This document shows positions 13,475-49,653 of a DNA stretch of 64,000 nt, one piece after another; positions within the stretch are counted from its first letter, which is position 1, and each line of letters opens with the position of its first letter. Origin of the DNA: Alphaproteobacteria bacterium. GTDB lineage: Bacteria; Pseudomonadota; Alphaproteobacteria; Rs-D84; CACZYB01. The stretch covers positions 60,963-124,962 of the forward strand of contig WQWV01000001.1 in assembly GCA_009785175.1 (NCBI GenBank), given 5' to 3'. The position numbers and the translations under genes are program-made. The notes below the pieces were generated by a model. The model did no database searches. It saw only the letters and a program-made list of their open reading frames with translations, and was not told the origin of the DNA.

Positions 13475-14266
13475 ATGAAGATAGGTATATTTGATTCCGG
13501 CCTTGGCGGCCTTATCGCCATGCGCGCCGTGGTCGAGACGCTGCCTACATACGACTACGTCTATATCGGCGACACGGCGAACCTTCCCTACGGCTCCCGC
13601 TCGCGCGAGAAGATTCTGCAATACACGGAAAAATGTATTGATTATCTTTTCCGCGAGCACGATTGCAAGATCGTCCTCATGGCATGCAACACCGCGGCCA
13701 TAGCTGCGCTTCGATACCTACAAACCGAATACCTTCCGAAAAACTACCCCGACCGCCGCGTCCTGGGCATTATAATTCCTACCATCGAGGCGGCGCTCGA
13801 GACCGGCGCGCAAGACATAGGCCTGATCGCCACGGTTTCCACCACCAACTCCAAAGTCTATGAAAAAGAGCTCCAGAAAATAAATCCCAACATCAAGATT
13901 TCAAGCGTCCCCGCGCCCCTTCTTGTGCCGCTCATAGAATACGACGGCGACAAATACGCCAAGGATATCATCAAGGATTACCTGGCCAAACTTCCGCCCG
14001 TCAAGGTGCTTGTCTTGGGCTGCACGCACTATCCCATGTATAAGGATCTGTTCCGAAAGATGCTCCCTGATACCAAGGTCATATCCCAAGACGAAATCCT
14101 TCCCGAGAAAGTCGCCGACTACCTTGCGCGCCACGACGAGATCAGGACGAAGCTCTCCCACGGCGGCACCAAGACGTTTATCTTTACGGATATAACTCCG
14201 AACTATGTGGCCACCGCCTGCCGGCTTTTCGGACACAAGATAGCGTTTACGAAGACGGAACTTTAG
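13475..14266 (+). CDS. murI: glutamate racemase
   Basis: Start chosen at MKIGIFDSGLGG (13475); MACNTA...GCTHYP active-site regions are present. An in-frame ATG-G9 (MGGGSS) 18 nt upstream could extend the N-terminus. Confidence 0.9.
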   Translation: MKIGIFDSGLGGLIAMRAVVETLPTYDYVYIGDTANLPYGSRSREKILQYTEKCIDYLFREHDCKIVLMACNTAAIAALRYLQTEYLPKNYPDRRVLGIIIPTIEAALETGAQDIGLIATVSTTNSKVYEKELQKINPNIKISSVPAPLLVPLIEYDGDKYAKDIIKDYLAKLPPVKVLVLGCTHYPMYKDLFRKMLPDTKVISQDEILPEKVADYLARHDEIRTKLSHGGTKTFIFTDITPNYVATACRLFGHKIAFTKTEL

Positions 14267-14274
14267 CATACATA

Positions 14275-14395
14275 AACTCTCAGCGAGTTCACTCGCTGCG
14301 CGCTGGACGCCGCCCCCACGCATGGAGAGCCGCGCCCTTCGGGACACGCCGCCTATGCTCGGCGTCTTGGCTTGCTAGCCCCCTAAAATTATGCT
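14275..14395. repeat. ~100-bp intergenic repeat, copy 2
   Basis: CTCAGCGAGTTCACTCGCTGCGC...ACGCCGCCCCCACGCA, matching 6322-6420. Confidence 0.7.
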
Positions 14396-14400
14396 ATAAT
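14372..14400 (+). promoter_or_regulatory. sigma70-like promoter TTGCTA-17-TATAAT upstream of the hypothetical-virB11 operon
   Basis: Exact 17-nt spacer. ATG is 10 nt after the -10. Confidence 0.5.
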
Positions 14401-14410
14401 AATACCCGCC

Positions 14411-15172
14411 ATGCGAACCCTTGATATCTACAGCGCTATAAAAGATTTCATCTCCGCCTCGCCGCGCGAAATCCAAACTCCTGGCGCTATGGTAAAGGAC
14501 ATAGCCAAAGCCATAAACGACATTTCGGCAAACGCCGATAAAATCGATGACGAAGCGCTTTCGCTTACCGCAAGCCTTTTGTGGATAAGCGCGATAAAGA
14601 AAAACGGATATAAAATCGCAGCCGCGGGCGCCGCCGCTAAAAATCTCTTCCCATTCGCGCCCGACCTCAAGATCGCCACGTTTGCCAAGGCGATCGACAT
14701 AGCAACCGGCATAGCAAACGATTCCTCGATAATAGCGTTCGTGCCCCTAAAAGGAAGCCGCGACATCTGGTGGTCGAACATGCTCTTGCCCGACGCCGCG
14801 GTCAAGGTGATCGCCAAGCTCGGAGCCCCCGGCACGGAATCATACCTGATCGCGAACGAGCCCAAGGCGTTTGGCTTCGACCGCTCCATCATAGTCGTCA
14901 AAACGGACAAGACGCTATCGGCCAACGACCTTACCACCACTCTCCACAAACTCAAAATTCCTATATACAGGATCACCTCGCAAACCGCGCTTGTCGACGG
15001 CTCGGTCGCGCATGTGGTCGAAATTTCGCACCCGATAAAATCCGCCAACGCCGGCATCTTCAAGCTCAAGGACGAAATCGGCGGCGTGAAATTGAAAGTT
15101 TCCGGCTACCTCGGCGGCTACTCGGAACCGTGCACACAAAAAACCGAAATCTTGAAATTCAAGGTGGCATGA
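14411..15172 (+). CDS. hypothetical soluble protein co-transcribed with virB11
   Basis: 253 aa, no TM segment, no recognisable motif. Stop overlaps the virB11 start (ATGA). Confidence 0.55.
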   Translation: MRTLDIYSAIKDFISASPREIQTPGAMVKDIAKAINDISANADKIDDEALSLTASLLWISAIKKNGYKIAAAGAAAKNLFPFAPDLKIATFAKAIDIATGIANDSSIIAFVPLKGSRDIWWSNMLLPDAAVKVIAKLGAPGTESYLIANEPKAFGFDRSIIVVKTDKTLSANDLTTTLHKLKIPIYRITSQTALVDGSVAHVVEISHPIKSANAGIFKLKDEIGGVKLKVSGYLGGYSEPCTQKTEILKFKVA

Positions 15173-20801: not shown

Positions 20802-21674
20802 TCAATAAACAATCGATACGTCTTGCCGGCTAACGATTTTGAAACCCGAGAAAGAATCAATCAACTCAAGCGTCGTCTCTTCTTGTGAACGCAAGGCGTA
20901 TTCGATTTTTTTATCATGAAGGCGGGCGTCGATGTTGTCGCCGGCGCGGCTCATGGCCTGTGCGCGCGAGATATGCTCGGCCTCAAGCGACAGGCACAAA
21001 GCGCGGAACAGCCGGGAGTATGCATACTGCGCCATGATTTTCGCCATCGTTTCCGACGCATTCGCGCCCACATCGGGTATGGCCTTGTCCGCCCACGGCA
21101 CGGACCGTATCGAGTTGAGTTTCACATCGTCGATCGGGAATATTTTTTTCTCCATAACATGGATTCTTCCGCCCGATCGCACGTTATGCACGATAACGAT
21201 CGAGCCGCCGGATTCCGCAAGTTTGGCAACTTCGAGCGCAAGCATTATCTCTTCCGCCACTGCGGCAAGTCGCCCGACCGATTTCGGCATCTCCATGAAT
21301 TGCTTGAACTGTTGGTGATACCTAGCCCTAAGGGCCCGCCCGCAAATTATGACCTCTGCTCCGGCAACGCGTGAACCCATCGCCTCGAAGTGATGCACCA
21401 CGCCCTTGTTAAGCTTTCCGACAAGCCCGATGTCCGACCCTATAAGCACTACTTTTTTAATAACAGAATCGGGCGCAGCCGCCACAATCCGTGGCTCCGC
21501 CTTGAATACAGCCCGCATTGCAAGCTCGAGATTCGCGGCGAATTCGTCTGCCGATAACGCTGCCTTCACGAACTTGGCCCCTGCCGCCGCAGACATGGTT
21601 TTAAGGGATGAAACCACGCTCTTCATTTTCGAAAGCGTGTTGATCTGGCGTTTTACTTGGCTAAGGTTTGGCAT
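20802..21674 (-). CDS. atpG: N-ATPase gamma subunit
   Basis: F1-gamma fold signatures; last gene of the atpDCQRBEFAG order. Confidence 0.8.
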   Translation of the reverse strand: MPNLSQVKRQINTLSKMKSVVSSLKTMSAAAGAKFVKAALSADEFAANLELAMRAVFKAEPRIVAAAPDSVIKKVVLIGSDIGLVGKLNKGVVHHFEAMGSRVAGAEVIICGRALRARYHQQFKQFMEMPKSVGRLAAVAEEIMLALEVAKLAESGGSIVIVHNVRSGGRIHVMEKKIFPIDDVKLNSIRSVPWADKAIPDVGANASETMAKIMAQYAYSRLFRALCLSLEAEHISRAQAMSRAGDNIDARLHDKKIEYALRSQEETTLELIDSFSGFKIVSRQDVSIVY

Positions 21675-23091
21675 TCCTCATCACCTTCTTAAGCTGCTCC
21701 ATCTCGGGGTTGGAAAGCGCCACGCCGGACGCTATTTTTTTCCACAACGCGGATGCGGATTTCTTAACCGCCGCCACGATCTTGGCGGCGAACGGCAATA
21801 CCTTTTCGATCTTGATCCTGTCGAACAATCCCGCCTCGAGCGCCACAAGCATTACGGCCAAAGCCGCGCCCTCCACCGGCTCGCCATAGTTCTGTTTCAA
21901 TAATTCTCGCGTAGCCCGCCCGCGCGCCAGTATCTGTTCCGATTTCTCGTCAAGCTCGGAACCGAATTTGGTGAAATCCTCCAAATCCAAAAACGAGGCA
22001 TAGGCGGATTTCATATTGCCCGCGGCCTTAGCGAGAGTTTTTATCTGCGCCTTGGAACCGATGCGCGAAACGCTCAAACCCGCATCGATCGCCGGCAGCT
22101 GTCCCTTCGAGAACAAGGCCGACGATAGGACAATCTGTCCATCGGTGATTGAAATAACATTAGTCGGAATATACGAGGCAAGGTTTCCGGCCTGCGTTTC
22201 AATGATCGGCATAGCGGTTATAGAACCCCCGCTTTTGAAATTTCCGGCCCGCTCCAACAAACGCGAATGCGCCCAGAATATGTCGCCCGGATAGGCCTCT
22301 CGTCCCGGCGCGCGCTCAAGCGAAAGCGAAATCTGGCGATACGCGTTTGCGTGCAAGGTTAAGTTGTCATAGACTATTAAAACGTCTTTGCCCTGCCCTG
22401 CGAAATATTCGGCTATAGCGGTTGCGGTATATGGGGCGACATACGCCTCCGCCGCGCTTTTCTCGCTTGCCGCCGCCACTATTACTACGTTATCCAAAGC
22501 CTTGGCGGATGCCAAACGCCCGCGTATCCGCTGCACCTCGCTCATCTTCGCGCCAATCAAGCATAGCACCGAGATCACGCCGTTGTCCCGGTTGGCAATC
22601 ACCGCATCGATCGCGATTGTGGTCTTGCCGGATTGCCGATCTCCGATGACAAGCTCGCGCTGTCCGCGCCCGATCGGAATCATGGCGTCGATTATTTTTG
22701 TGCCTGTGCTAAGCGGGACGTTGACCGGCCTACGACTGATGATAGGCGGGGCCTCGCGCTCTATCGGCATGCGGAGTTTGGACGGTATTTTGCCCTCGTC
22801 GTCGATGGGCATTCCAAGCGCATCGACCACACGGCCAAGGAGTTTATCGCCGACCGGCACGCTCATCTGGACGTTAAGCCTTACGATTTTATCGCCCGCC
22901 GCGACAAGCGATTCGTCGCCGAAAAGCGCGATTTGCACGGCGGCCGCGGTGATCCGCATCACCATTCCCTCAACCGCTCCTACACGCACCATCTCGCCAA
23001 GCCCTACGCGGGAAAGGCCGGATGCCACCACGATTCCGCCCGCCACCGACACTGTGCGCCCGACTTCGCGGGCTATTACAAGCCTAGTCAT
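21661..23091 (-). CDS. atpA: N-ATPase alpha subunit
   Basis: GDRQSGKTTIAIDAVI Walker A, characteristic of alpha subunits. Confidence 0.9.
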   Translation of the reverse strand: MTRLVIAREVGRTVSVAGGIVVASGLSRVGLGEMVRVGAVEGMVMRITAAAVQIALFGDESLVAAGDKIVRLNVQMSVPVGDKLLGRVVDALGMPIDDEGKIPSKLRMPIEREAPPIISRRPVNVPLSTGTKIIDAMIPIGRGQRELVIGDRQSGKTTIAIDAVIANRDNGVISVLCLIGAKMSEVQRIRGRLASAKALDNVVIVAAASEKSAAEAYVAPYTATAIAEYFAGQGKDVLIVYDNLTLHANAYRQISLSLERAPGREAYPGDIFWAHSRLLERAGNFKSGGSITAMPIIETQAGNLASYIPTNVISITDGQIVLSSALFSKGQLPAIDAGLSVSRIGSKAQIKTLAKAAGNMKSAYASFLDLEDFTKFGSELDEKSEQILARGRATRELLKQNYGEPVEGAALAVMLVALEAGLFDRIKIEKVLPFAAKIVAAVKKSASALWKKIASGVALSNPEMEQLKKVMRNAKP

Positions 23092-23827
23092 TTTTCACCC
23101 TCGCTATGAATTCCTCGATAAAATTTTCAATGGAAAATGATAGTTCCAGATCGCCGCATGAAATCAATATCCCGATCGGCATTTGAAGCACCCGTTCGAA
23201 TTTAACCTTCGCCTTCTCTTTCAATGCAACATCGAACGCCGCTGCGATTTCCCGACGCATATCGGCCGCGATAATAAACGGCGCCTTGACCAAGACCGAC
23301 CGCTCGGCCGCATAGAATTTCCTAAGTTGCGCCAACCCTTCCATCTTCCCGGTTTTTAGCATTTCGACAAGGCGCAGGCATATAACCTCCTCCATCGGGC
23401 GCGAGGTTATGAACTCGACCGCCCCGCGAAGCGTCGCCGCCAAATCTTCGCCCGCCGCCGCCTCAAGCCGTCCCAAAAACTTGGCGCGCTCCGATTTAAG
23501 AAGACGTTCGAACGCCGCCTGCCGAGATTCGATGTCGGATTTGAAAGCAAGCGTTTCCTCCTCGCGTATACGCGCGATCTCGGCCATGCCATCTTCTCTC
23601 TCGCGGGCAAGCTCGGCTTCCATCCGCTCGCGCTCCATGTCGAAATTCTTGCGCTCGTTTTCAAGCTCGCCGCGGGCAAGCTCTGCGGCTACCAGTTCGC
23701 GCTCAAGGCGACGCTTGCGCTCGCTCATATTCTTCATCACGGGGGTAAATACCCACCGGCGTAAAACCCAAAGGCTGATAAGGAAATTTATCGCCTGAAG
23801 TATTACCGTGATGAAATCTATGCTCAT
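23084..23827 (-). CDS. atpF: N-ATPase b subunit (long form; no delta gene present)
   Basis: N-terminal TM helix, then an extended charged coiled coil and a C-terminal globular part. 247 aa. Confidence 0.65.
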   Translation of the reverse strand: MSIDFITVILQAINFLISLWVLRRWVFTPVMKNMSERKRRLERELVAAELARGELENERKNFDMERERMEAELAREREDGMAEIARIREEETLAFKSDIESRQAAFERLLKSERAKFLGRLEAAAGEDLAATLRGAVEFITSRPMEEVICLRLVEMLKTGKMEGLAQLRKFYAAERSVLVKAPFIIAADMRREIAAAFDVALKEKAKVKFERVLQMPIGILISCGDLELSFSIENFIEEFIARVKND

Positions 23828-23837
23828 GCGCCGCGCC

Positions 23838-24128
23838 CTATGCCCCTGCGCCCGCCGCGGTCAAAGCCGCGCTCCAGAACGGATTGGCGAACAATAAAAT
23901 CATCGCGATAAGCAAGCAATAGATAGCCACAGTTTCAAGCATCGCGATCGATACGAAAAGCGTCGAGCGTATGTTGTCTGCCTCGTCTGGCTGCTGGGTC
24001 ATCGAGGCAAGCGCCTGTTTGACCGCCATTCCTTCGGCGACTTCGACGGCGATGCCTCCGATCGCGATTGTAAATCCTGCGGTGGCGATCGATACCACGG
24101 CGATTGATGTCGAGCTAGGGTCTAGCAT
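23838..24128 (-). CDS. atpE: N-ATPase c subunit with a complete putative Na+-binding ligand set
   Basis: Start taken at MLDPSS. Helix 1 has Q (VKQALASM), helix 2 has ETxxxY (AMLETVAIYCLL). Confidence 0.75.
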   Translation of the reverse strand: MLDPSSTSIAVVSIATAGFTIAIGGIAVEVAEGMAVKQALASMTQQPDEADNIRSTLFVSIAMLETVAIYCLLIAMILLFANPFWSAALTAAGAGA

Positions 24129-24825
24129 TTTTTCCTCCTTGTTTTTGTGAATTGTTATGACTGTGTGAAACGCGGGACTTCTTGGCTTCCACCCCGGTCG
24201 TGATGTAAACCGTGGCAAGCACCATGAAAATAAACGGCTGTATCGTCCCCGCGATCAACCCGAAAAGGTTCATAAGCGCGGGAAAGAAGAAAGGAGCAAG
24301 CACTATCATAAGGCCGACCATGAACGCTCCGCTCATGATGTTGCCGTAAAGCCTCATTGCGAGCGAGAAGAATTTCAAAATCTCGGATAACACGTTGAAC
24401 GGGACAAGTATGGCGCTGGGCTCGATAAACCGCCGGAAATATCCGCGCACTCCGACCTCTCGCACGGCTATATAGATTCCGTATATGAAAGTAAGGATCG
24501 CCAACGCCGCACATGTCGATATCGACGCCGTCGCCGGATCGACGAACGGGATTAATACAAGCCAGTTGTTGGCGAATATGAATATGAAAAGCGCGCCCAC
24601 GAATGTCATGACCTGCATATCTTCGCGCCCCGAAACCGCCGCCACCTGCCCGCGGATAAATTCTACCACCACCTCGACCAGCATGCTGCGGCGATAAAAA
24701 ATCAGAAGCGGCAAAGCGATAAGCATAGCCGCCCATGTATAGACGACCGTCGCGGTGATACCAACCTCGCCGACCGAGAAGACAAGAAGCTCATCTGGAC
24801 TTAAACGCATACACCCTTCCCGCAA
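24115..24825 (-). CDS. atpB: N-ATPase a subunit
   Basis: Conserved LAMRLYGNIMSG arginine motif; 5-6 TM helices. Confidence 0.85.
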   Translation of the reverse strand: MREGCMRLSPDELLVFSVGEVGITATVVYTWAAMLIALPLLIFYRRSMLVEVVVEFIRGQVAAVSGREDMQVMTFVGALFIFIFANNWLVLIPFVDPATASISTCAALAILTFIYGIYIAVREVGVRGYFRRFIEPSAILVPFNVLSEILKFFSLAMRLYGNIMSGAFMVGLMIVLAPFFFPALMNLFGLIAGTIQPFIFMVLATVYITTGVEAKKSRVSHSHNNSQKQGGKNARP

Positions 24826-25051
24826 AAATTCCGATTACACATGCGAACAGAAGCGACGGCACCCGCCCGAAAAGTATCGCCATTCCCGCCAACCAAACGC
24901 TTGCTACAATAAGCCTCAGGGCCAAAAACTGCTTAAAAGGCCCGGGTTTTTTGCTTTTAAGCGTGCGCTCCAACGATTTTTTCAACCATGTGAAATACCA
25001 ATACGACGAGAAGAATCCCACGCCCAACGCGATTAAAATTGCGACTATCAT
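24791..25051 (-). CDS. atpR: N-ATPase-specific small membrane protein AtpR
   Basis: 86 aa from MIVAILIALG; two to three TM helices with intramembrane Arg (LALRLIV, FAGRVY). Overlaps the atpQ stop by 4 nt. Confidence 0.6.
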   Translation of the reverse strand: MIVAILIALGVGFFSSYWYFTWLKKSLERTLKSKKPGPFKQFLALRLIVASVWLAGMAILFGRVPSLLFACVIGIFAGRVYAFKSR

Positions 25052-25309
25052 TGCTTGATCTCCCTTTTGATGAAACGGTATGTGTTGTAAAGCCCGAAAA
25101 GGATTCCGCCCAAAATAAAGCATAGCGTGGTCCACCTGTCCCCGAACAATGTTCCTATATAGGTAAACAATGCCACCGGCGCCGCCACACCCCATCCGAC
25201 AAGACCGAACAACGATGCGGCGCGCCACACCCCGCTTCCGATCGGTTCGCCGCGCGCGGCAAGCCGGCGTTCTATTTCACGCTCGATTTTATCCTCGAAT
25301 TTTTTGTTA

Positions 25310-25317
<8 letters not shown>
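25048..25317 (-). CDS. atpQ: N-ATPase-specific small membrane protein AtpQ (AtpI/AtpZ-like)
   Basis: 89 aa, two TM helices. Located between atpC and atpR. Confidence 0.6.
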
Positions 25318-27144
<1,827 letters not shown>

Positions 27145-27152
27145 TTATCGGG

Positions 27153-28120
27153 CTATCTTAAGATAAACGTTTCCCCTTCATCGGCGATTTTTTCACCATC
27201 ATGATAGCATGCTTTTCTAACTCCGGTCGCACTCAATATCCGAATGACACCATGGCTAGCGAAAGTGGAGTCCTCGCATTTTATGACTTCATTTTTACGG
27301 AAATGATGGCCGGCAAGCAACCCATAGGGCATCTTATACGGCTCGGTAAACGTCCCCCATACTTCCCCTTCCTTTTTACCGAAGGTGGCGTCTTTGTTAT
27401 AACAGAGCTTTTCAACTCCGGGAATCGGGTCGCCGAAAGTCGCATTGTTGCATGTTATCGAACCGGGCCCTACTGTTTTCCAATTCGCTTTTCCATATAC
27501 TATGCCTACGACATGGTTGGGGTCGCCGCCTACTCTTACTTCCCTATGATTGCCCGCCGGAACAGGCGCAGCCACCCTCGCTTCTACATACGACGCACGC
27601 CGGGAGGACGTACCGGCGCCTTCATCTTCAACGTCTGCCAGTGCCACTCGCCGCCGCCGCGCTTGACCTTCGGCTTCTACTATCCTCAGGTTATTAAACA
27701 GCTCCTGCTCCAACTCGTTATACTTTCCCTCAAGCGCGTTAAGCCAACCTTCGATGCCGGCAAGCCTTCCCTCCAACTCCGGCGGTACGGAGGGTGTCTG
27801 CGGCATGTTCGCGATTTGCGATTTAAGCGCCGAGATTTCGGATTCAAGCGCGGTTATGCGTTGATTCGCCCCGCCGCCCTGCTGACTGGTTTCGCGGGTT
27901 CCTTGGCCATGATTGGTCTTGCGAACCTTTCTGCCGGAGTTGCCGGCCTTGGCATTCGACGTCCTCTGATTGCCGGCATTGGTTCTTCCGCCGGAATTGC
28001 CTGCCTTACGCCGCTGCTGCTGTGCGAATAAATCCTCGGCCATTAATGAAAGCAAAAGAAACGCTATAAGGAGAAGTTTACCCCCCCCCGCACAAATCGC
28101 ATATTTTTGTTGAAAAGCAT
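27153..28120 (-). CDS. phase-variable secreted coiled-coil / Cys-module protein, paralog 1 (phase OFF: frameshift at the G9 tract)
   Basis: The downstream frame (ORF track 27153..28055, TTG start) encodes ...GGGKLLLIAFLLLSLMAEDLFAQQ. The upstream ATG at 28120 (ribosome-binding site GGGAG) reads MLFNKNMRFVRGGV and stops. One extra G in the tract at 28081-28089 would fuse the two frames. Confidence 0.6.
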
Positions 28121-28147
28121 AGTATATTCTCCCCTATTCTTGCAAAT

Positions 28148-28176
28148 AGTATACCTTATTTCCTATACCTTGACAA
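28148..28176 (-). promoter_or_regulatory. sigma70-like promoter TTGTCA-17-TATACT for paralog 1
   Basis: Minus-strand -35 at 28171-28176 and -10 at 28148-28153. Same architecture as the paralog 2 promoter. Confidence 0.45.
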
Positions 28177-28182
28177 GGGAAA

Positions 28183-28707
28183 TTAAAATCTATAGAGAAG
28201 CGAGCCGGATATGAAACCGGACGGTTCCAAAATATCCCCGGAATATGTCTTTCTTCCGACTGTTGCACGAAGGACGAATCCGTTCGAGAAGCCGTAATCC
28301 ACACCGGCGAAAAGTCCCCAATAGAAATCTTCCTTCTTCTCTCCCGAGTTGAACGAGTATCCGGCCAAGCCGCCCGAAACTCCTGCGAACAGATCGAAAT
28401 TATATATCCCGCCGAAGAAGTGCATGACCGAGGCCTCGTATGCCATATATTTGAACTCGGAAATATCTCCGCCGGACGGCCGTATTTTCGAAGGTATGAA
28501 GAAGGTGAAGGCGGCGCCCCAGTTGTTGACGAAGCGGACACCTGCGTGAATTCCGTTGACCGAGGCGTCGGTGTCCATTTCCTCAATCCATTCGCCGGTG
28601 ATAGCGAACTTCTCCGCGCGCCGCTCGAAACCTATATAGTTTTCAGGAATATATGCCTTGGCATCAAGCGTAAAAAAGATCGCTAAAATAAAAATGAGGG
28701 CTTTCAT
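28183..28707 (-). CDS. small outer-membrane beta-barrel protein (OmpX/OmpW-like, 8-strand class)
   Basis: Signal peptide; alternating amphipathic strands with aromatic girdle residues; C-terminal ...LLYRF. Confidence 0.65.
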   Translation of the reverse strand: MKALIFILAIFFTLDAKAYIPENYIGFERRAEKFAITGEWIEEMDTDASVNGIHAGVRFVNNWGAAFTFFIPSKIRPSGGDISEFKYMAYEASVMHFFGGIYNFDLFAGVSGGLAGYSFNSGEKKEDFYWGLFAGVDYGFSNGFVLRATVGRKTYSGDILEPSGFISGSLLYRF

Positions 28708-29619
28708 CTATTTCTCCGTAAGCTTGAATTCTATCCTGCGATTTTTGGAAAGGGAAGCATTATCGTTGCCAACCGCGACCGGCTGGAACTCGCCGAATCC
28801 TGCGGCGGCAAGGCGGTCGGCCGGGATTCCGCGACTATGCAGATACCTGACGACTTCGCCGGCGCGCGCAGACGATAACTCCCAGTTGTCCGCGAACAGG
28901 GAGCCCGCGCGAACTGGTCGTGAATCGGTATGCCCGTCCACACGCAAAATCCAATCGGTGTCGTCGGGAATTTTCTGCATTGCTTCAATGAGTGTGGCTG
29001 CTATGCCGTCAAGCGCCGCGCGGCCCGCTTCGCCTATTTCGGCGGACTCGGGCGCAAAGAAAACCTCGGACGGCAACACGAACCTGTCGCCGCGGATCTC
29101 GAAATTCCGATTGCCCTCAAGCGCGCCCAATAAAGAGCCGAAGAAGTCGGAGCGAACCCTGTGCAACTCGGCGGTTTTATTTGCCAAAGCGCGGTTGAGC
29201 TTCTTGCCAAGCTCGACGATCTGCACCTTCTGCCACGCGATGTATTTATCGGTCGCTTCGAATACGGCGTTCAACTTCTGAAGCTCTCGCCCCAACCGCT
29301 CGACCCGATTTTTATATTCACGGTTTTGTTGCTCCAAAGTCTTGATCTCGTTTTCTTTTTTGATAATCGTGCCGTCCATTTCCGCAACCATCTGGTTCAA
29401 AGCGTCTATGCGCGAAGTATTCGCCTCGTTTTTGATCCGCTCGGCACGTTCACGGGCAAGGATATCGCTTAACTCCACCGAAGCGCCGTCTTCCTTCGCT
29501 TCCTCGGGCCGCGCGAAAACCAACGCAAGCGTGATGAAAAGCATGAACAGGAACATCGAGCTCATCAAGTCGACGAAGCTTGGCCATAAATTCTGCTCTT
29601 CTCGCGTCATTATTGTCAT
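28708..29619 (-). CDS. MotB/OmpA-family protein: N-terminal TM anchor, ~130-aa coiled coil, C-terminal OmpA-like peptidoglycan-binding domain
   Basis: MotB-like N-terminus (WPSFVDLMSSMFLFMLF). OmpA_C motifs TDSRPV...NWELSSARA...NRRIEF. Confidence 0.75.
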   Translation of the reverse strand: MTIMTREEQNLWPSFVDLMSSMFLFMLFITLALVFARPEEAKEDGASVELSDILARERAERIKNEANTSRIDALNQMVAEMDGTIIKKENEIKTLEQQNREYKNRVERLGRELQKLNAVFEATDKYIAWQKVQIVELGKKLNRALANKTAELHRVRSDFFGSLLGALEGNRNFEIRGDRFVLPSEVFFAPESAEIGEAGRAALDGIAATLIEAMQKIPDDTDWILRVDGHTDSRPVRAGSLFADNWELSSARAGEVVRYLHSRGIPADRLAAAGFGEFQPVAVGNDNASLSKNRRIEFKLTEK

Positions 29620-29631
29620 CGCGCCGATTTC

Positions 29632-30744
29632 CTATAGTTTCGATTTGGCAAGCAGTCGGATATCCGCCGAAAGCGTTTCAGTCATTTCGCTAAGCTTGAA
29701 GTCGATCAGGCGTATGTGCTCCTTGGTCGCCGAATCCATACCGAATCCGGATTTGGTCATCTTCAGCATCTCGTCCATGGCCTTAATCATCTTCTCGGGC
29801 ACCATGGACATCTTGTCCATCTGTTTAAGGCGCGTTTGCATCTGCCCCGCAAGCTCGACTACCGCACTTCCCATTGCGCCCATCTTTGCGGCGGTTTCGG
29901 CCGAAGTTTCGTTCGCCTTGGCGATTACGCGCTGCAAAGCTCCTACCGCGTCCGCAGTCTGCTCGATCATGGCCTTAAGATAGGTAAGCGTTCCGGCGTT
30001 CACTCCGTCCTGCTGCGGAACCGACGCGCGGGCAAGCGACATGATGGAGTCTTCGGCCTGATTGCAAAAATCGCGCTTCATTACGTCAAGGAGGAATTGC
30101 AAAAATCCAACAGCCAACGACAAACCAAGACCGAAAAGCGAAGTCGAAAACGCGACCCTCATTCCGCCGATAGGCGCCAGAATTCCACGGCGCACGGCCT
30201 CAAGATCCGCTCCGCCCGAAACGGCTGTGCCGGCCGCGCCAACGGATACCAACAAACCCCAGAAGGTTCCAAGCAGGCCGATGAACACCAATATGCCCGC
30301 TATGTATTTCGATGTATATCCGAATCCGGAAACGCGCGCTCGCAACGCCGCCGCGACCTTCTCTGCCGCACCCATGTCCATATAACCGTGCCCGGCCTTT
30401 CCGCCCGATGCCAGCTGATGGAAAGCAAAACGCATCTCGCTCGGCACATGTATATTGCGCTCGCCGGACATATAGGCGTTCATAGCGAACGCTCCGCGAA
30501 TTACCTTGAATTGATTGACGAAGTTTGCGACCACACCGGCCACAAAAAGCCCGACGATAAGCGAGTTAAGCCCGGCGCTTGCACCGAACGCTTCGACGAC
30601 CGAGCCGCCGGAAATCAACGCCCCGACGATAATTGCTGCTACGAAGGCGCACGCGCCGAAAAAGCACGCTTTGATACGTATGAAATCTATCTTTGTAAGT
30701 TTCGACTGTTTGACCATGGAACACCTCTTGATTACTTTCGACAA
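29632..30744 (-). CDS. MotA/TolQ/ExbB-family proton channel with a ~140-aa Met/Lys-rich cytoplasmic C-terminal extension
   Basis: Four TM helices in 2+2 topology; GLLGTFWGL signature in TM3. The C-terminal tail is predicted coiled coil. Confidence 0.75.
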   Translation of the reverse strand: MSKVIKRCSMVKQSKLTKIDFIRIKACFFGACAFVAAIIVGALISGGSVVEAFGASAGLNSLIVGLFVAGVVANFVNQFKVIRGAFAMNAYMSGERNIHVPSEMRFAFHQLASGGKAGHGYMDMGAAEKVAAALRARVSGFGYTSKYIAGILVFIGLLGTFWGLLVSVGAAGTAVSGGADLEAVRRGILAPIGGMRVAFSTSLFGLGLSLAVGFLQFLLDVMKRDFCNQAEDSIMSLARASVPQQDGVNAGTLTYLKAMIEQTADAVGALQRVIAKANETSAETAAKMGAMGSAVVELAGQMQTRLKQMDKMSMVPEKMIKAMDEMLKMTKSGFGMDSATKEHIRLIDFKLSEMTETLSADIRLLAKSKL

Positions 30745-30793
30745 ACATTACCCGCGTTTTGTCCACTAGTCAAGGGAAAAATCAAGAAAAAGC

Positions 30794-32086
30794 CTACGCT
30801 CTGCCACCGCCGGATTTAACGGACGACAATCTCTTCAAAGGCAACGGAGCCGCCGAAACCGGCCGCACCATTCCCCCGCCAAGCTTGAAATACAGCGACT
30901 GTAGTATCTTGAAATGCTCAAGCACCTTACGCTTTGCCGGATCGGCATTATCAACAGTATACTTGCGGAAGGCTTTCACAGATTCCAATAATTCGCTACT
31001 CTCGACCTTGCCAATTTGATGGTTGACCCGCCGCTCGAGGCATTTGGCCAATACGGCATTAAGGACAAGATAGTCCCCTTCCGCCCGACCGGTCTTTATT
31101 TTCGCAAGCGCGGCCTGGAGGTTCTCCCAAGCGGTCTTTTTCTTGTCATAGCTTGCGGCGAATATGTCGCCGAACTTCTTGTTGAACCATGCCATCTTTT
31201 CTGTCGGATCGAGATACATGATATCGAACGCCACCCGCGCGCCCATCACTTCTTTAAGCATGAACCCGAACGTGGTTATGGCTTCGTTCGAGCTTTCGTT
31301 ATTGCATATGTTCAAATAGTTTCCGCTATCGAATCGCCGCCTAAGCTGGACGCCCGCCCCGGCCATGACAAGGGATTCGGATTCGTTGAATATCTCGTTC
31401 ATGTCTATATGGGCCTTGATCCCGCCGTTTGTTTTGCGAAAAGCCGCCTTGGCCAGCGGTGAGAAATGGGGCACGTACAATCCGACATTTATAAATCTCG
31501 AATTAAGGAATCTTCCCACTTTTTTTATATTCGAAGGGGAGTTTATGATACCCTTGTACTTGCCGCCGCCCATTTCCGAAACCCGCTTTGCCGCCTTAAA
31601 ATAGACTGAATCCGTTTCGTCCTCGATTTTCCTAAGGCTGAACCTCGATTGAATCCCGTGCTCGAACTCGTGCATTATCACTTTTTTCTTGGCGATGTCG
31701 CGCACAGGCTTCGTCGCGCGAGTCAAAAGCAGCGGCTGGCGCTTGAACTGATTGTCTATATTGTCAAGGTTCAAAAGGACGGTAAGCTCTTCCGGCACAT
31801 ACTGGCCCTTGGCGTCCGTCCCGTCTTCCCCGACCGCGCGGACATTGAAAAACAGGCGGTTCAAGAAGAAATCCTCAAGCGCGTATTTTCCGTTCACCGG
31901 CTTGATTATGTAATAGGCGAAATCGTCCTCCTTAACCGAAACATGGGTGATACCCTGACTCGAATAATGCCGGACAAGGTTTGCTATCAGCTCTTTAAGG
32001 ATCGAGTTATAGTCGACCTTGCCCTTCGGCGGCTTCACTATGTCGCAATACGCATCGATAAAATCCGAGATTTTCTTCTTGTCCAT
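30794..32086 (-). CDS. cytoplasmic HExxH (HEFEH) protein of unknown function, first gene of the MotAB-like cluster
   Basis: 430 aa, no TM segment; VIMHEFEHGIQ zincin-like motif. Confidence 0.5.
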   Translation of the reverse strand: MDKKKISDFIDAYCDIVKPPKGKVDYNSILKELIANLVRHYSSQGITHVSVKEDDFAYYIIKPVNGKYALEDFFLNRLFFNVRAVGEDGTDAKGQYVPEELTVLLNLDNIDNQFKRQPLLLTRATKPVRDIAKKKVIMHEFEHGIQSRFSLRKIEDETDSVYFKAAKRVSEMGGGKYKGIINSPSNIKKVGRFLNSRFINVGLYVPHFSPLAKAAFRKTNGGIKAHIDMNEIFNESESLVMAGAGVQLRRRFDSGNYLNICNNESSNEAITTFGFMLKEVMGARVAFDIMYLDPTEKMAWFNKKFGDIFAASYDKKKTAWENLQAALAKIKTGRAEGDYLVLNAVLAKCLERRVNHQIGKVESSELLESVKAFRKYTVDNADPAKRKVLEHFKILQSLYFKLGGGMVRPVSAAPLPLKRLSSVKSGGGRA

Positions 32087-32190
32087 TTCACAGATTCCTT
32101 TGCAGACATTATACCACGGAATTTTCTAAAAAACCACTTGCTTTAACTCTGGCAAGGATCTATGCTTTCCAGCATAAATAAGGATTTGAA

Positions 32191-33159
32191 ATGACACGTA
32201 TATTATCAGGGGTAAAGCCCACCGGCAGCCCCCACCTCGGCAACCTTTTCGGCATGATTCTGCCGGCGATAGAGCTCACAAACGCGAACCCCGGAGCGCT
32301 TCTTTTTATCCCGGATATTCACGCGCTTAATTCCGTAAAGGACGCAACCAAAATGCGCGAGCTTTCATACGAGGTCGCGGCCACGCTTATCGCCTGCGGT
32401 TTTGACGTATCGAAAAACATCACCTACCGCCAATCCGACATTCCCGAAATTTTTGAACTTTCCGCAATCCTTATGCCTTTCACGCCCAAGGGCCTGATGA
32501 ACCGTGCGCATGCCTATAAGGACAGGTTGGCCAAAGACGGCAACGACGATAACGTCGACATGGGGCTTTATACTTATCCCGTTTTGATGGCCGCAGATAT
32601 TCTTGCGTTCGACACGGACATAGTGCCCGTCGGTCTGGATCAGAAACAGCACATCGAAATCGCCCGCGACATAGCCGAGCGCGTGAACGCCGCCACCGGC
32701 AAACCTACGCTTAAATTGCCCAAGGAATCTATTAAGAAGGACGTCGGCACAATCCCCGGGCTTGATGGCCGCAAGATGAGCAAATCGTATGGAAACACTA
32801 TCGAGATTTATTCCACGCCCGAGGAAACGGCGAAAAAGCTTGCCAAGCTCGCCACCGATTCCCTAACCCCCGCCGACCCTAAACCTGACGACAGCGCGAT
32901 TTATAACCTCATGCGCCTGGCAAATGTGGACAAGCAATTCCAAATGCACTACCTCTCCGGCGGCATAGGCTACGGCGATGCTAAAAAAGAATTGGCCAAT
33001 GCACTGAACACCTACCTCTCCCCCATGCGCGAAAAATACAACGAACTTATAAACAATAAAGCCTACCTTGATAAGGTTTTATCCGAAGGCGCCACAAAGG
33101 CACGCGCTATCGCAACTCCTATCCTTGACCGCGTTAAGAAAGATTTAGGACTACTGTAA
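32191..33159 (+). CDS. trpS: tryptophan--tRNA ligase
   Basis: Class I HIGH-like (TGSPHLGN) and KMSKS motifs. Confidence 0.9.
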   Translation: MTRILSGVKPTGSPHLGNLFGMILPAIELTNANPGALLFIPDIHALNSVKDATKMRELSYEVAATLIACGFDVSKNITYRQSDIPEIFELSAILMPFTPKGLMNRAHAYKDRLAKDGNDDNVDMGLYTYPVLMAADILAFDTDIVPVGLDQKQHIEIARDIAERVNAATGKPTLKLPKESIKKDVGTIPGLDGRKMSKSYGNTIEIYSTPEETAKKLAKLATDSLTPADPKPDDSAIYNLMRLANVDKQFQMHYLSGGIGYGDAKKELANALNTYLSPMREKYNELINNKAYLDKVLSEGATKARAIATPILDRVKKDLGLL

Positions 33160-44079: not shown

Positions 44080-46125
44080 CTAGAAGCCATCCAAATTGAC
44101 CGCTTCCTCCTCGTCATCGCTGATGCGTAGCATTATGTCGCGGGCAAGGTATACTTGGATTCGCGTGCCGGCGGGAACGGTGAAAGGCTTGCGCTGGCGA
44201 AGCGATTGATGGATCATCTTTTGCGCCATGGCTTTCCAATTCTGCTGGATTTCCATCTTCATTTTGTCGCGCGGGGTCATGTTGAAGAAAGCGGTCTCGG
44301 CCATATCCGGATTCCATGTTGCCACCCCGGTAAGCTCGTCCCCGAACACTTCATCCTCAAAGACCGCGCCGCCAAGCGTAGCCCACTGCCCGTCCGTCAC
44401 CCTCTGTGTGACCGCGAATTGGGACGAGGTGGGGAACAGCGCCTCCATCGCGACCGGCAAAGCGCTATAAAGAAGCGGCCGCATGAAGAAGCTCTTCATG
44501 TATTCTGGATCGACGCGCCCCGGCACTCCGTCGCGTCCCTGCGCATCCGTGGTCGAGGTTTCGGGACCGGTGCCGTCGATGGTATTGCCGGCAAGCTTGA
44601 ACTCGGCGCCGTCGGGACGGATAAGACGTTCCCAGCCAAGCTGGACGCGCACGATTGTTTCAAGCGGGTTGTCGAGAGCTATGTTCGGCGGTTCGGCGAA
44701 ACCGATAAGCTGGCTTCCGGCGGGAACCACGATGGTGCGCCCGTCGCCGCCGTATACGTTTCTCTCGACGGTGGCCAAAGCCATAAGCTGGTCTGGCGCC
44801 GTTCCGTCGACAAGCTGGCTGACGTATATGGGCCTGACAAGCACGGCTGGTATGGGCTTGCCCTGACGCAGCACAAAGCGCTCGTCCTTGGGGTTCGAGG
44901 ACACATAATCCTTGGAGTCGATTGTAAATGGCACAAGCCCCTTCTGTCCGCGGCCGCGTATACCAAGCGGATCGGGCAGGCGGTGGCAGTCGTCCTCGTC
45001 TTCGCACGGACGGCCCACACCGCCCTCTTTGGCGATCATGCGATTGTTGATGACGTCGTCTATATTGGGGTTGAAGTTGTTTGCGTTGCGAGCATTCAAT
45101 ACTTCGTCGAGTATAGGAAGCACGAGGTTGATGCGGCGATCATGCGCCTTGGCCTGGTCATGCACGATACCCTTGCCTATGATCTGACCGGTGCGGGACG
45201 CGATGACCATGCCGTCGTCCTGAAGCGTGCCGATGACCTGGCGACAGTTGGGAGAGTATACGTTGCGGTTGCCCTGTGCCCATCCGATGAACACGCCCGA
45301 GAAATCGTAAACCTTGCTTGCGAAATTGCGACAGCTCATGCCCTGCGCGATTGCGTCCGAAATCTGGGGTTCCGGCGCGGCGACCTGGGCTGACCGCACG
45401 GGCTGAGGAGTCGGCACAGGCTGGGACTCCCACGAAGGCTCGGCAAAATCCTCGAATTCGTTTTCCTCCTCGAAAGGATTAAACGCGGGTGGCGCAGGAG
45501 GAGCCGCAGGAGCCGGCGCGGTAAATGAGACTTCGACGGGTATAGAGAGCGTCATGCTTGCGGCGTCGGTCTCGTCCTCGGGCACATATTGAACCTCCAC
45601 GCTAAACGATCGGCTAAGGGTTTCATAGGGCACGAAGGAAACGGTGATGCTGCACCGATTGAAAAGGTCTATGCCGTCAAGCTCGACACAGTCGTTGCCG
45701 ATGGATACGCCGTCGACCGACTGGCTTGCGAAGACATTCATCACGCGGACTGCGCGCTCCATTCCCGAGATTTGGATCTGATCTAGCACCGCCTCGCCGG
45801 TATTGCTTCCCCAAAGCGATATGCGCGAGGGTGTGGCGGATAGAAGCGCCGTGGCGGCGGCTGGCACGGAAACTGCGGCGGGCGCTCCGGCTTCTTCTGA
45901 TACGGATTCGGCAACGGCAAAGGGATTTGTGTTCTTTGTCTTCTCCTCGCCGCCGAACATTACGACTCCGGCGATGAATACGCCAAGCATAGCGAAGGAC
46001 ACAAGCATCAGCACGCGGCCTGATCTGGCCTCGCCGGCACGGATGTCGCTCTGCATCGCGGGCGCGACTGCGCTTGCGTTCGGCGCCGCTTCCTGATTAT
46101 GAGCTTTCCTTCTTATCCCGAACAT
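44080..46125 (-). CDS. virB10: type IV secretion system VirB10/TrbI family protein (long form, Pro-rich linker)
   Basis: N-terminal cytoplasmic segment plus TM; Pro-rich region APAAPPAPPAF; C-terminal TrbI-like domain (IVVPAGSQLIGFAE...). Confidence 0.8.
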   Translation of the reverse strand: MFGIRRKAHNQEAAPNASAVAPAMQSDIRAGEARSGRVLMLVSFAMLGVFIAGVVMFGGEEKTKNTNPFAVAESVSEEAGAPAAVSVPAAATALLSATPSRISLWGSNTGEAVLDQIQISGMERAVRVMNVFASQSVDGVSIGNDCVELDGIDLFNRCSITVSFVPYETLSRSFSVEVQYVPEDETDAASMTLSIPVEVSFTAPAPAAPPAPPAFNPFEEENEFEDFAEPSWESQPVPTPQPVRSAQVAAPEPQISDAIAQGMSCRNFASKVYDFSGVFIGWAQGNRNVYSPNCRQVIGTLQDDGMVIASRTGQIIGKGIVHDQAKAHDRRINLVLPILDEVLNARNANNFNPNIDDVINNRMIAKEGGVGRPCEDEDDCHRLPDPLGIRGRGQKGLVPFTIDSKDYVSSNPKDERFVLRQGKPIPAVLVRPIYVSQLVDGTAPDQLMALATVERNVYGGDGRTIVVPAGSQLIGFAEPPNIALDNPLETIVRVQLGWERLIRPDGAEFKLAGNTIDGTGPETSTTDAQGRDGVPGRVDPEYMKSFFMRPLLYSALPVAMEALFPTSSQFAVTQRVTDGQWATLGGAVFEDEVFGDELTGVATWNPDMAETAFFNMTPRDKMKMEIQQNWKAMAQKMIHQSLRQRKPFTVPAGTRIQVYLARDIMLRISDDEEEAVNLDGF

Positions 46126-48618: not shown

Positions 48619-49653
48619 TTAAGGGTTAAAGACGAAAGTATGTCCGCCGTCCGTAATATGCACCCCGTTTACATAACACCTATCGCCACGACCTCTTGCC
48701 GGATCGCCGAATGTGGCGTCGTCGCAAGAAATCGTAGAATGCCTTGCGAATCCTCTTTTCCTAAGCGATTGGCCGTAAAGCACGAATCCGTCGGCCGGCA
48801 CGGTGAATGCCTCGCCTTGTGTGGCTATGTGTTCGCCATGCCTTGTAAAGCATATCTTTCTCTTGCCGTCGTTTTGGGAATTCCTTATCGGATCGTCGAC
48901 ACCAAGGTTTTGCTCCTGGCATATCATGGCCGAACCGGGCGTATGCGTGCTATGGCGAAGCGGACCGTATACGACCCATGTATCAAGCGCGGCCTGAGCG
49001 TGTCTTTGTGCCTCTTCCTGCTCTTGCATGAATTCGTTTACCCTTTGGGTCGAGGCGGCCGATTCACCTACGCTTGCCTTTGTGGCAAAAGCGGCGTTCG
49101 CATGCTTCTTGATTTCTATACCACGGTTGGCGAAGTCCTCAAGCATAGGATCATCCCAACCCGAAGGCTTCCTAAGATATCTGTTATCAAGCCCGGCTAC
49201 ATCGGTCTTAAGCTTGCTGACATCCGCCTGAACCGACGCGAACTGAGCGGCGTTCACGCTTGTTCCGGTGGTGGTGGCAAGGGTCGTGCGCCAGGTCTCA
49301 AGCGCGCCGATCCTTGAATCAAGCGACGTGGTCGAGGCGGCCCTGGCCTCGCCTTCGGTGGTTGAGGTGCCAAGCAGAGCCTCAAGCTGCTTCTTAAGTT
49401 CTGCGACTTCGGATTCTAGCGTCTGTATTCTCTCAGCAGCCCTCGAGGTGCCGCCGGTATTTGTAGTCGTGGCGCGCGGCTGCCTGCCCTGCTCTTTCCT
49501 ATTGGCCGAACCTCTGGCTGTGGTGCCGCCAGCCTTGCGGTGCCGCTGCTGTGCGGCAAGGTCTTCGCCCATAACCGAAAGTGCGAGGAACGCAATGAAG
49601 AAAAGCTTCACTCCCCCCCCCCACGAGAATTTTGTTTTTACGTCAAATAACAT
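48619..49653 (-). CDS. phase-variable secreted coiled-coil / Cys-module protein, paralog 2 (phase ON: G10 tract in signal-peptide codons)
   Basis: MLFDVKTKFSWGGGVKLFFIAFLALSVMGEDLAAQQ. Plus-strand C10 at 49613-49622. Ribosome-binding site AGGAGA. Central coiled coil; C-terminal CxnC...TFGDP modules; contains an RGD tripeptide. Confidence 0.75.
   Translation of the reverse strand: MLFDVKTKFSWGGGVKLFFIAFLALSVMGEDLAAQQRHRKAGGTTARGSANRKEQGRQPRATTTNTGGTSRAAERIQTLESEVAELKKQLEALLGTSTTEGEARAASTTSLDSRIGALETWRTTLATTTGTSVNAAQFASVQADVSKLKTDVAGLDNRYLRKPSGWDDPMLEDFANRGIEIKKHANAAFATKASVGESAASTQRVNEFMQEQEEAQRHAQAALDTWVVYGPLRHSTHTPGSAMICQEQNLGVDDPIRNSQNDGKRKICFTRHGEHIATQGEAFTVPADGFVLYGQSLRKRGFARHSTISCDDATFGDPARGRGDRCYVNGVHITDGGHTFVFNP

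Follow-up and report, generated by a model that had tools for sequence, protein, structure and literature searches.

Two genes of a four-gene alphaproteobacterial cluster probably encode a peptidoglycan-anchored, ion-driven envelope motor

The DNA analysed here (the window, 64,000 nucleotides of contig WQWV01000001.1, assembly GCA_009785175.1) derives from a metagenome-assembled Alphaproteobacteria bacterium and carries, at positions 28183-32086, a cluster of four genes that we call A, B, C and D in the order in which they are read (locus tags FWD15_00495 to FWD15_00510). B and C encode a channel subunit and a peptidoglycan anchor resembling those of the MotA/MotB and ZorA/ZorB motors. A preliminary description of the sequence had placed four co-oriented open reading frames (ORFs) with short gaps here, and the ORF list confirms this arrangement. 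C and D abut (0 bp), B and C are 12 bp apart, and A is separated from B by 49 bp if B begins at a TTG codon or by 76 bp if it begins at the ATG at 30717. The ATG is the likely true start and gives a protein of 361 aa; it follows a Shine-Dalgarno sequence (AAGAGG), gene callers choose it, and the N-termini of homologues agree with it. The ORFs are as follows.

30794-32086, minus strand: ORF A, 430 aa, soluble gluzincin-like protein
29632-30717, minus strand: ORF B, 361 aa from the ATG at 30717, MotA/ZorA-like A-type motor subunit
29632-30744, minus strand: ORF B in its maximal form, 370 aa from the TTG at 30744
28708-29619, minus strand: ORF C, 303 aa, MotB/ZorB-like B-type motor subunit
28183-28707, minus strand: ORF D, 174 aa, secreted, with features of a small outer-membrane beta-barrel, lineage-specific

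Homologues of B, of about 380 aa, number more than 1,500, and a scan of GTDB with a single genome for each species gave at least 576 genomes with relatives, most of them Alphaproteobacteria. The matches listed include Rhodospirillales, Kordiimonas, Kiloniellales, Acetobacteraceae, Azospirillum and Roseivivax, with a few from Dokdonella and Thauera. We compared 80 species loci carrying B relatives, together with the related loci L009-L011. In 77 of the 80, the next gene downstream of B, and on its strand, was a homologue of C; in the other three the contig ends short. In most loci the gap between the two genes was -4 to about +50 bp. In Magnetospirillum aberrantis, for example, the two form an isolated pair whose genes overlap by 4 bp. 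No homologue of A was found in the 80 loci or in L009-L011, and none of D. The closest informative relative, L009 (labelled Rickettsiales bacterium; B 45% and C 62% identical), retains the surrounding N-ATPase operon, trpS, argS, plsY and dprA, and there B-C stands alone, with neither A nor D. The preliminary description had proposed a four-gene system with A as effector and D as outer-membrane partner, and had named conservation of synteny as its test. Conservation holds for B and C, which stay together, and not for A and D. Since A and D are absent from the related loci, the four-gene reading is not supported. We consider it quite probable that the functional unit is instead the two-gene B-C pair, an uncharacterised and vertically inherited 5:2-type motor, ion-driven and anchored to peptidoglycan, which probably serves the envelope in a housekeeping role. 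The features of B and C to which we refer are these.

30253-30279, minus strand: motif GLLGTFWGL in the third transmembrane (TM) helix, TM3, of B, residues 147-155, holding Thr151; invariant in 22 of 22 family members
29635-30075, minus strand: cytoplasmic tail of B, residues ~215-361, ~145 aa, helical
29569-29571, minus strand: Asp17 codon of C, within the motif WPSFVDLM where the TM helix begins
28738-29061, minus strand: OmpA-like domain of C, residues 187-294 (Pfam PF00691, E 1.8e-16), with DGHTD...NWELSSARA...NRRIE

Protein B contains four hydrophobic segments (~10-35, 44-70, 137-166 and 188-213), corresponding to four predicted TM helices, and its cytoplasmic loop, only ~65 aa long, did not align with MotA by sequence. 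This agrees with the MotA-like protein of 370 aa, four TM helices and GLLGTFWGL described earlier, the length being 370 aa from the TTG and 361 aa from the ATG. Further residues invariant in the family alignment are P182 and Ser193, the latter in TM4. Thr151 and Ser193 form a putative ion-filter pair, whose correspondence to Thr147 and Ser184 of ZorA we infer from motif position. B has the A-subunit fold of the 5:2 motor superfamily (MotA, ExbB, TolQ and ZorA), with conserved polar residues in the two inner TM helices. In the AlphaFold2 monomer model, the membrane core has predicted local distance difference test (pLDDT) values of 82-95, and the tail begins with a low-confidence linker (231-247) followed by helices at 241-268, 273-322 and 329-360. 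Invariant tail residues in the family alignment are Y246, A249, E252, Q253, T254, H334 and D339, and the tail carries the motif AYxQALLEQTAD. The tail had been described as a feature not found elsewhere. It is indeed absent from MotA, TolQ and ExbB, but it is kept across the whole B family, and is therefore a hallmark of the family and no local oddity.

Database matches to B were few. There was no match in Pfam even at E 10, MotA_ExbB and MotA_N included, and none to the NCBIfam MotA models. The only named hidden Markov models (HMMs) matching with E < 0.001 were those of ZorA, mainly over TM3-TM4. The PADLOC ZorA match (1e-13) covers the TM3-TM4 region only, and the NCBIfam scores were 29.4 bits for antiphage_ZorA_2 (cut-off 100), 24 for ZorA_1 (190) and 13.9 for ZorA_3 (250). 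Searching PDB sequences with the A1 profile gave coiled-coil noise and no motor protein, with no MotA or PomA chain at E <=1; its top match was an MlaD-domain protein (E 0.021), which we discounted as a low-complexity resemblance between helical sequences. The tail had no specific PDB sequence match. When the AlphaFold2 model was used in Foldseek, ZorA (8vvn_D) ranked first among solved structures; ZorA, TolQ and ExbB were the closest structural neighbours, and MotA and PomA ranked lower.

Protein C consists of a TM helix (13-39), a coiled coil (~40-170, matching several coiled-coil Pfam families) and the OmpA domain (187-294), which bears out the earlier account of a MotB-like protein of 303 aa with a coiled coil of ~130 aa between TM helix and OmpA-like domain. 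Asp17 lies where MotB, ExbD, TolR and ZorB have their universal Asp (Asp26 in ZorB). Motifs kept at >=80% among 75 family members are WPGFVDAL, DGHTD, SNWELSxARA and NRRIE. PADLOC ZorB3 matched C at 2.5e-28, and the PDB sequence matches were solely to the OmpA-like domains of MotB, MotS and PomB (1e-13 to 1e-10). The strongest match, to NCBIfam PRK09039.1-2 (NF006543), covers residues 66-302 with E 1.4e-73 and a score of 248.8 bits, below the equivalog cut-off of 305. C is clearly related to PRK09039 as a short, divergent member, and the PRK09039 'peptidoglycan-binding protein' models (NF006542-NF006546), which carry no functional information, evidently describe the B-subunit (C) family of the pair. 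Across the family C ranges from 296 to 850 aa, the window protein and its L009 relative being among the shortest. The longest homologues reach 804-850 aa (L073, L082 and L091), and two more have 596-661 aa (L043 and L026). Given the conserved ends, this suggests that nearly all of the length variation lies in the coiled coil.

The comparison with known motors supports the earlier view that B-C is a stator-like A/B pair outside the flagellar and Tol/Ton groups. As in MotAB and PomAB, the A subunit has four TM helices, and the B subunit starts with a TM helix that bears the Asp and ends in an OmpA-like domain; the differences are that B-C has no MotA HMM match, a short loop, a coiled coil in place of plug and linker, and no flagellar genes in the neighbourhoods inspected. 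TolQ and ExbB are ~230 aa proteins with three TM helices and no long tail, whereas B has 361 aa and four predicted TM helices; TolR and ExbD lack an OmpA-like domain, which C has, and no TolR/ExbD-type family is among the listed matches of C. No TolA- or TonB-like gene adjoins the pair, and C itself would provide the long periplasmic reach. C resembles ZorB in its TM Asp (Asp17) and its peptidoglycan-binding OmpA domain. In contrast, ZorA of the solved ZorAB complexes (E. coli 8QYD, Shewanella 8VVN) has three TM helices rather than the four predicted in B, and its tail is a continuous, very long pentameric tube, whereas that of B is ~145 aa behind a flexible linker. In ZorB no linker separates the peptidoglycan-binding domain from the TM helix; the coiled coil of C spans 130 aa, and those of its relatives up to ~650 aa. 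Zorya further differs in its accessory genes, as ZorC, D, E, F or G are not found beside B-C, whose neighbours are the N-ATPase operon, trpS and argS, and in that B-C is vertically conserved in core-genome contexts. Membership of B-C in the flagellar, Tol/Ton and Zorya groups thus fails at least one defining test in each case.

In the solved ZorAB structure, Asp26 of ZorB contacts Thr147 and Ser184 of ZorA, and mutating these residues abolishes function (PMC11946911). An equivalent Asp/Thr/Ser triad appears to be present in B-C. By analogy with solved 5:2 motors, a C dimer would have its two TM helices enclosed by five copies of B. Protons would pass from the periplasm via Thr151/Ser193 of B to Asp17 of C and on to the cytoplasm, and this flow would drive B to step or rotate around C. 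C would be held still, its dimeric coiled coil reaching the wall and its OmpA-like domains binding peptidoglycan. The moving part would carry the five conserved three-helix cytoplasmic tails, each on its flexible linker, and the tail would be a likely output or input surface for a partner.

The surroundings of the pair were examined in the 45 loci in which the B ORF was called, 38 high-GC loci without a recovered B ORF being left out. The flanks are housekeeping genes rather than defence islands, and 20-22 of the 45 loci have suhB and efp upstream of the pair. Directly upstream of B, 20 of the 45 have a gene that clustering assigned to a secreted protein, rich in Pro and OmpA-like at its C-terminus, which is possibly a third component of the B-C system. 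In free-living relatives (L013, L018, L024, L044, L052, L062, L069, L075, L089, L090 and others) the upstream gene is co-oriented with the pair, encodes a long Pro/Ala/Lys-rich linker, gives NCBIfam matches of the PdsO, YiaD and PA1041 types (1e-10 to 1e-5) and is itself preceded by suhB and efp; the window has no such gene. In the host-associated clade nearest the window, B and C are separated by one or two ORFs for small, soluble cytoplasmic proteins (L010 8173-9306, L093 4444-5497 and L094 6195-6557). The 120-aa protein of L094 resembles two repeats within the 255-aa protein of L010 (E 1e-7 and 4e-5), and the L093 ORFs are unrelated to either. A conserved small subunit between B and C was considered and rejected, the inserted ORFs being mostly mutually unrelated and absent from the window. 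Two loci have Mla genes in the same orientation as the pair, with MlaE-MlaF directly upstream in L095 (3380-4905) and MlaD-ybeY-lnt in L094 (1914-2384). These Mla neighbours could be fortuitous, or they could point to a connection with outer-membrane lipid homeostasis. No flagellar genes were found near the pair in the inspected loci or in the parts of the window examined. A cluster look-up of family members returned no informative names, and several B homologues are called 'flagellar motor protein MotA' in their source annotations, which come from the Prokaryotic Genome Annotation Pipeline (PGAP).

Two features were noted in protein A.

31658-31672, minus strand: HEFEH, residues 139-143; invariant in 23 of 23 sequences
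31373-31399, minus strand: MNEIFNESES, residues 229-238; invariant E231, N234, E235 and E237

The HExxH motif reported for A is thus real and invariant in its family, and the predicted fold is that of a zincin (gluzincin). By analogy with gluzincins, the MNEIFNESES helix is a candidate site for the third zinc ligand. Identity to gluzincin metallopeptidases (M1 aminopeptidases, M30 lugdulysin and M9 collagenases) is 8-12%, and A differs from them in having no signal peptide. A matched no peptidase family in Pfam or NCBIfam, nothing in PADLOC, and nothing among PDB sequences, PHROGs or the phage collection. Its small family comprises 46 other homologues, which come from Firmicutes-like gut contigs, most with long and variable C-terminal extensions, and many of those from Firmicutes have 500-740 aa. 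The four neighbourhoods of A homologues that we inspected are Firmicutes-like gut contigs with sortase/SpaA, SpoIIM, SLH-amidase and extracytoplasmic function (ECF) sigma/anti-sigma genes, and none of the four holds a MotA or OmpA gene near the homologue. In L003/L004 (7552-10190) an ECF sigma/anti-sigma pair lies directly downstream of the A homologue, and in L003 a transposase/integrase-family (rve) gene lies ~2 kb upstream. Recent horizontal transfer of A into the window was ruled out on composition. GC content at third codon positions is 0.65, the same as in the neighbouring genes, so that A is not a fresh insertion. Together these data indicate that A is probably a divergent, zinc-dependent hydrolase of the gluzincin fold, and that it is a separate gene and not a conserved partner of B-C.

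Protein D has a signal peptide ending in AKA|Y, and its mature part is 20% aromatic and 14% Gly, with alternating hydrophobicity and the C-terminus LLYRF. The composition and the C-terminal Phe are consistent with a small outer-membrane barrel. D had no match in Pfam, PADLOC, NCBIfam or PHROGs, and among 5.8 billion clusters it matched only itself. A full HMMER search of 1.84 billion representatives returned D and one marginal match of 39 residues (E 2.6e-4). By these searches D is a lineage-specific orphan (ORFan).

Four interpretations of these data have to be weighed. Within the B-C family, the adjacency of the two genes is conserved, and the channel residues, the Asp and the peptidoglycan-binding motifs are invariant or nearly so. 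The 5:2 stoichiometry, the use of protons, the rotation and a housekeeping role in the envelope, instead of motility or phage defence, are inferred. One could suppose instead that the four genes form a lineage-specific modular system in the style of Zorya, in which B-C senses or energises, A is an effector recruited by the tail of B, and D is the outer-membrane partner. The co-orientation of the genes, their gaps of 0, 12 and 49-76 bp with no minus-strand terminator between them, the closeness of B and C to ZorA and ZorB, and the unrelated small genes in or beside the pair in relatives, which recall the variable Zorya accessory genes, would all fit. A and D are nevertheless missing from every compared locus, including the closest syntenic relative with its solitary B-C, and the pair is vertically conserved in housekeeping contexts. 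The A homologues examined sit on Firmicutes-like contigs away from MotA or OmpA genes, neither A nor D has a PADLOC match, and D offers no homologues for a test of co-occurrence. We therefore regard a four-gene system as unlikely. A second alternative takes B-C, on its own, as a minimal anti-phage Zorya-like module widespread in Alphaproteobacteria. ZorA and ZorB are the sole named HMM families on the channel core of B, and they are among the best for C besides PRK09039, but the scores fall far under the NCBIfam ZorA cut-offs (29 vs 100 and 24 vs 190 bits), the ~145-aa tail compares with a far longer one in E. coli ZorA, where deletion constructs reach residue 729, and none of ZorC, D, E, F and G accompanies the pair. 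With flanks of conserved housekeeping genes and no defence island, no match of B in the plasmid collection and none of A in the phage collection, we find this very hard to credit. The preliminary description had itself noted that the accessory genes do not match those of Zorya; the reading as Zorya-type defence that it raised is weak, as there is no accessory gene, no PADLOC match for A or D, and the context is that of the core genome.

The PGAP name carried by several homologues would make B-C a flagellar stator, in line with the four-TM, MotA-type topology of B and with the MotB-type Asp and OmpA-like domain of C. This we hold to be the least probable of the interpretations, as B matches neither Pfam MotA_ExbB/MotA_N (E 10) nor the NCBIfam MotA models, a PDB search with the A1 profile yields neither MotA nor PomA at E <=1, MotA and PomA rank structurally below ZorA, TolQ and ExbB, the cytoplasmic loop of B is only ~65 aa, and no flagellar genes lie near the pair in the window or in the inspected loci. 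The interpretation of B-C as a two-gene housekeeping motor has points against it as well. We found no paper or experiment on the B-C family in the full-text literature, so that its function has to be deduced; papers on MotAB evolution mention 'GIT' clades of unknown function, and ZorAB was excluded there. The length range of C (296-850 aa) is hard to square with a simple, fixed spacer between inner membrane and wall, the window C lacks the post-TM LSGRD motif kept in free-living relatives, and the tail of B is modelled with a pLDDT of only 50-69. No clear promoter or terminator was found in the A-B gap by scan. Finally, D abuts C with 0 bp between them, and differing small genes lie in or beside the pair in other relatives, so that B-C may have lineage-specific accessory subunits; B-C is possibly co-transcribed with D in this lineage. 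A candidate promoter picked by eye between A and B (TTGACT-17-TAATGT) was not called by the scan, its -10 hexamer matching at 3/6, and we make no claim for it.

The cluster is flanked by an N-ATPase-type operon, trpS, argS, plsY and dprA, and in the flanks examined we found no flagellar, Tol-Pal or TonB genes, so that the absence of such neighbours claimed earlier holds there. The ATP synthase operon (window 20802-27126, minus strand) has the order beta, epsilon, two small ORFs, a, c, b, alpha and gamma; it adjoins B-C both in the window and in L009 (33-6226), where local order and orientation differ. Directly downstream of D, a 300-aa protein (window 27153-28055, minus strand) has a Gly/Asn/Ser-rich N-terminus and a coiled-coil segment, and a distant paralogue lies at window 48619-49653 on the minus strand (25% identity over ~340 aligned positions, E 1.4e-11). 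Pfam gives no match above cut-off for either of the two, related loci contain neither, and the 300-aa protein has no PADLOC match. The suggestion that this neighbouring paralogue is phase-variable found no support, as there is no tandem repeat to sustain it in 26000-33000. Further away, a TrbI/VirB10-like protein (window 44080-46125, minus strand; Pfam TrbI 9.5e-19) points to a component of type IV secretion or conjugation, and in L009, too, a TrbI gene lies close to this neighbourhood (13759-15101).

Six functional classes of these membrane motors are recognised, namely flagellar MotAB, Ton, Tol, the gliding motors AglRQS and GldLM, and Zorya, and with each came a new example of how the proton gradient can power work in the envelope. 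B-C is a further, architecturally distinct class or variant of 5:2 motor, with a four-TM A subunit bearing a tethered tail and a long, variable coiled-coil B subunit with an OmpA-like anchor. It is found in hundreds of mostly alphaproteobacterial species and is retained in host-associated lineages labelled Rickettsiales, and the annotation 'flagellar motor protein MotA' is a misnomer for the B family. For this window, it means that the four-gene 'system' is an accident of neighbourhood, and that the pair family is not specific to it. A more speculative model, which we think rather improbable, casts B-C as a housekeeping sister of the Zorya motor, a proton-driven, rotary and peptidoglycan-anchored device that reports or repairs envelope perturbation via its tail and docks lineage-specific accessories (here A and D, elsewhere the small cytoplasmic ORFs or the secreted OmpA-like protein). 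If true, B-C would represent an ancestral, modular 'envelope-sensing motor' and a possible source of defensive Zorya. Knowing what B-C does would add a missing piece to the envelope biology of Alphaproteobacteria and shed light on the origin of Zorya motors.

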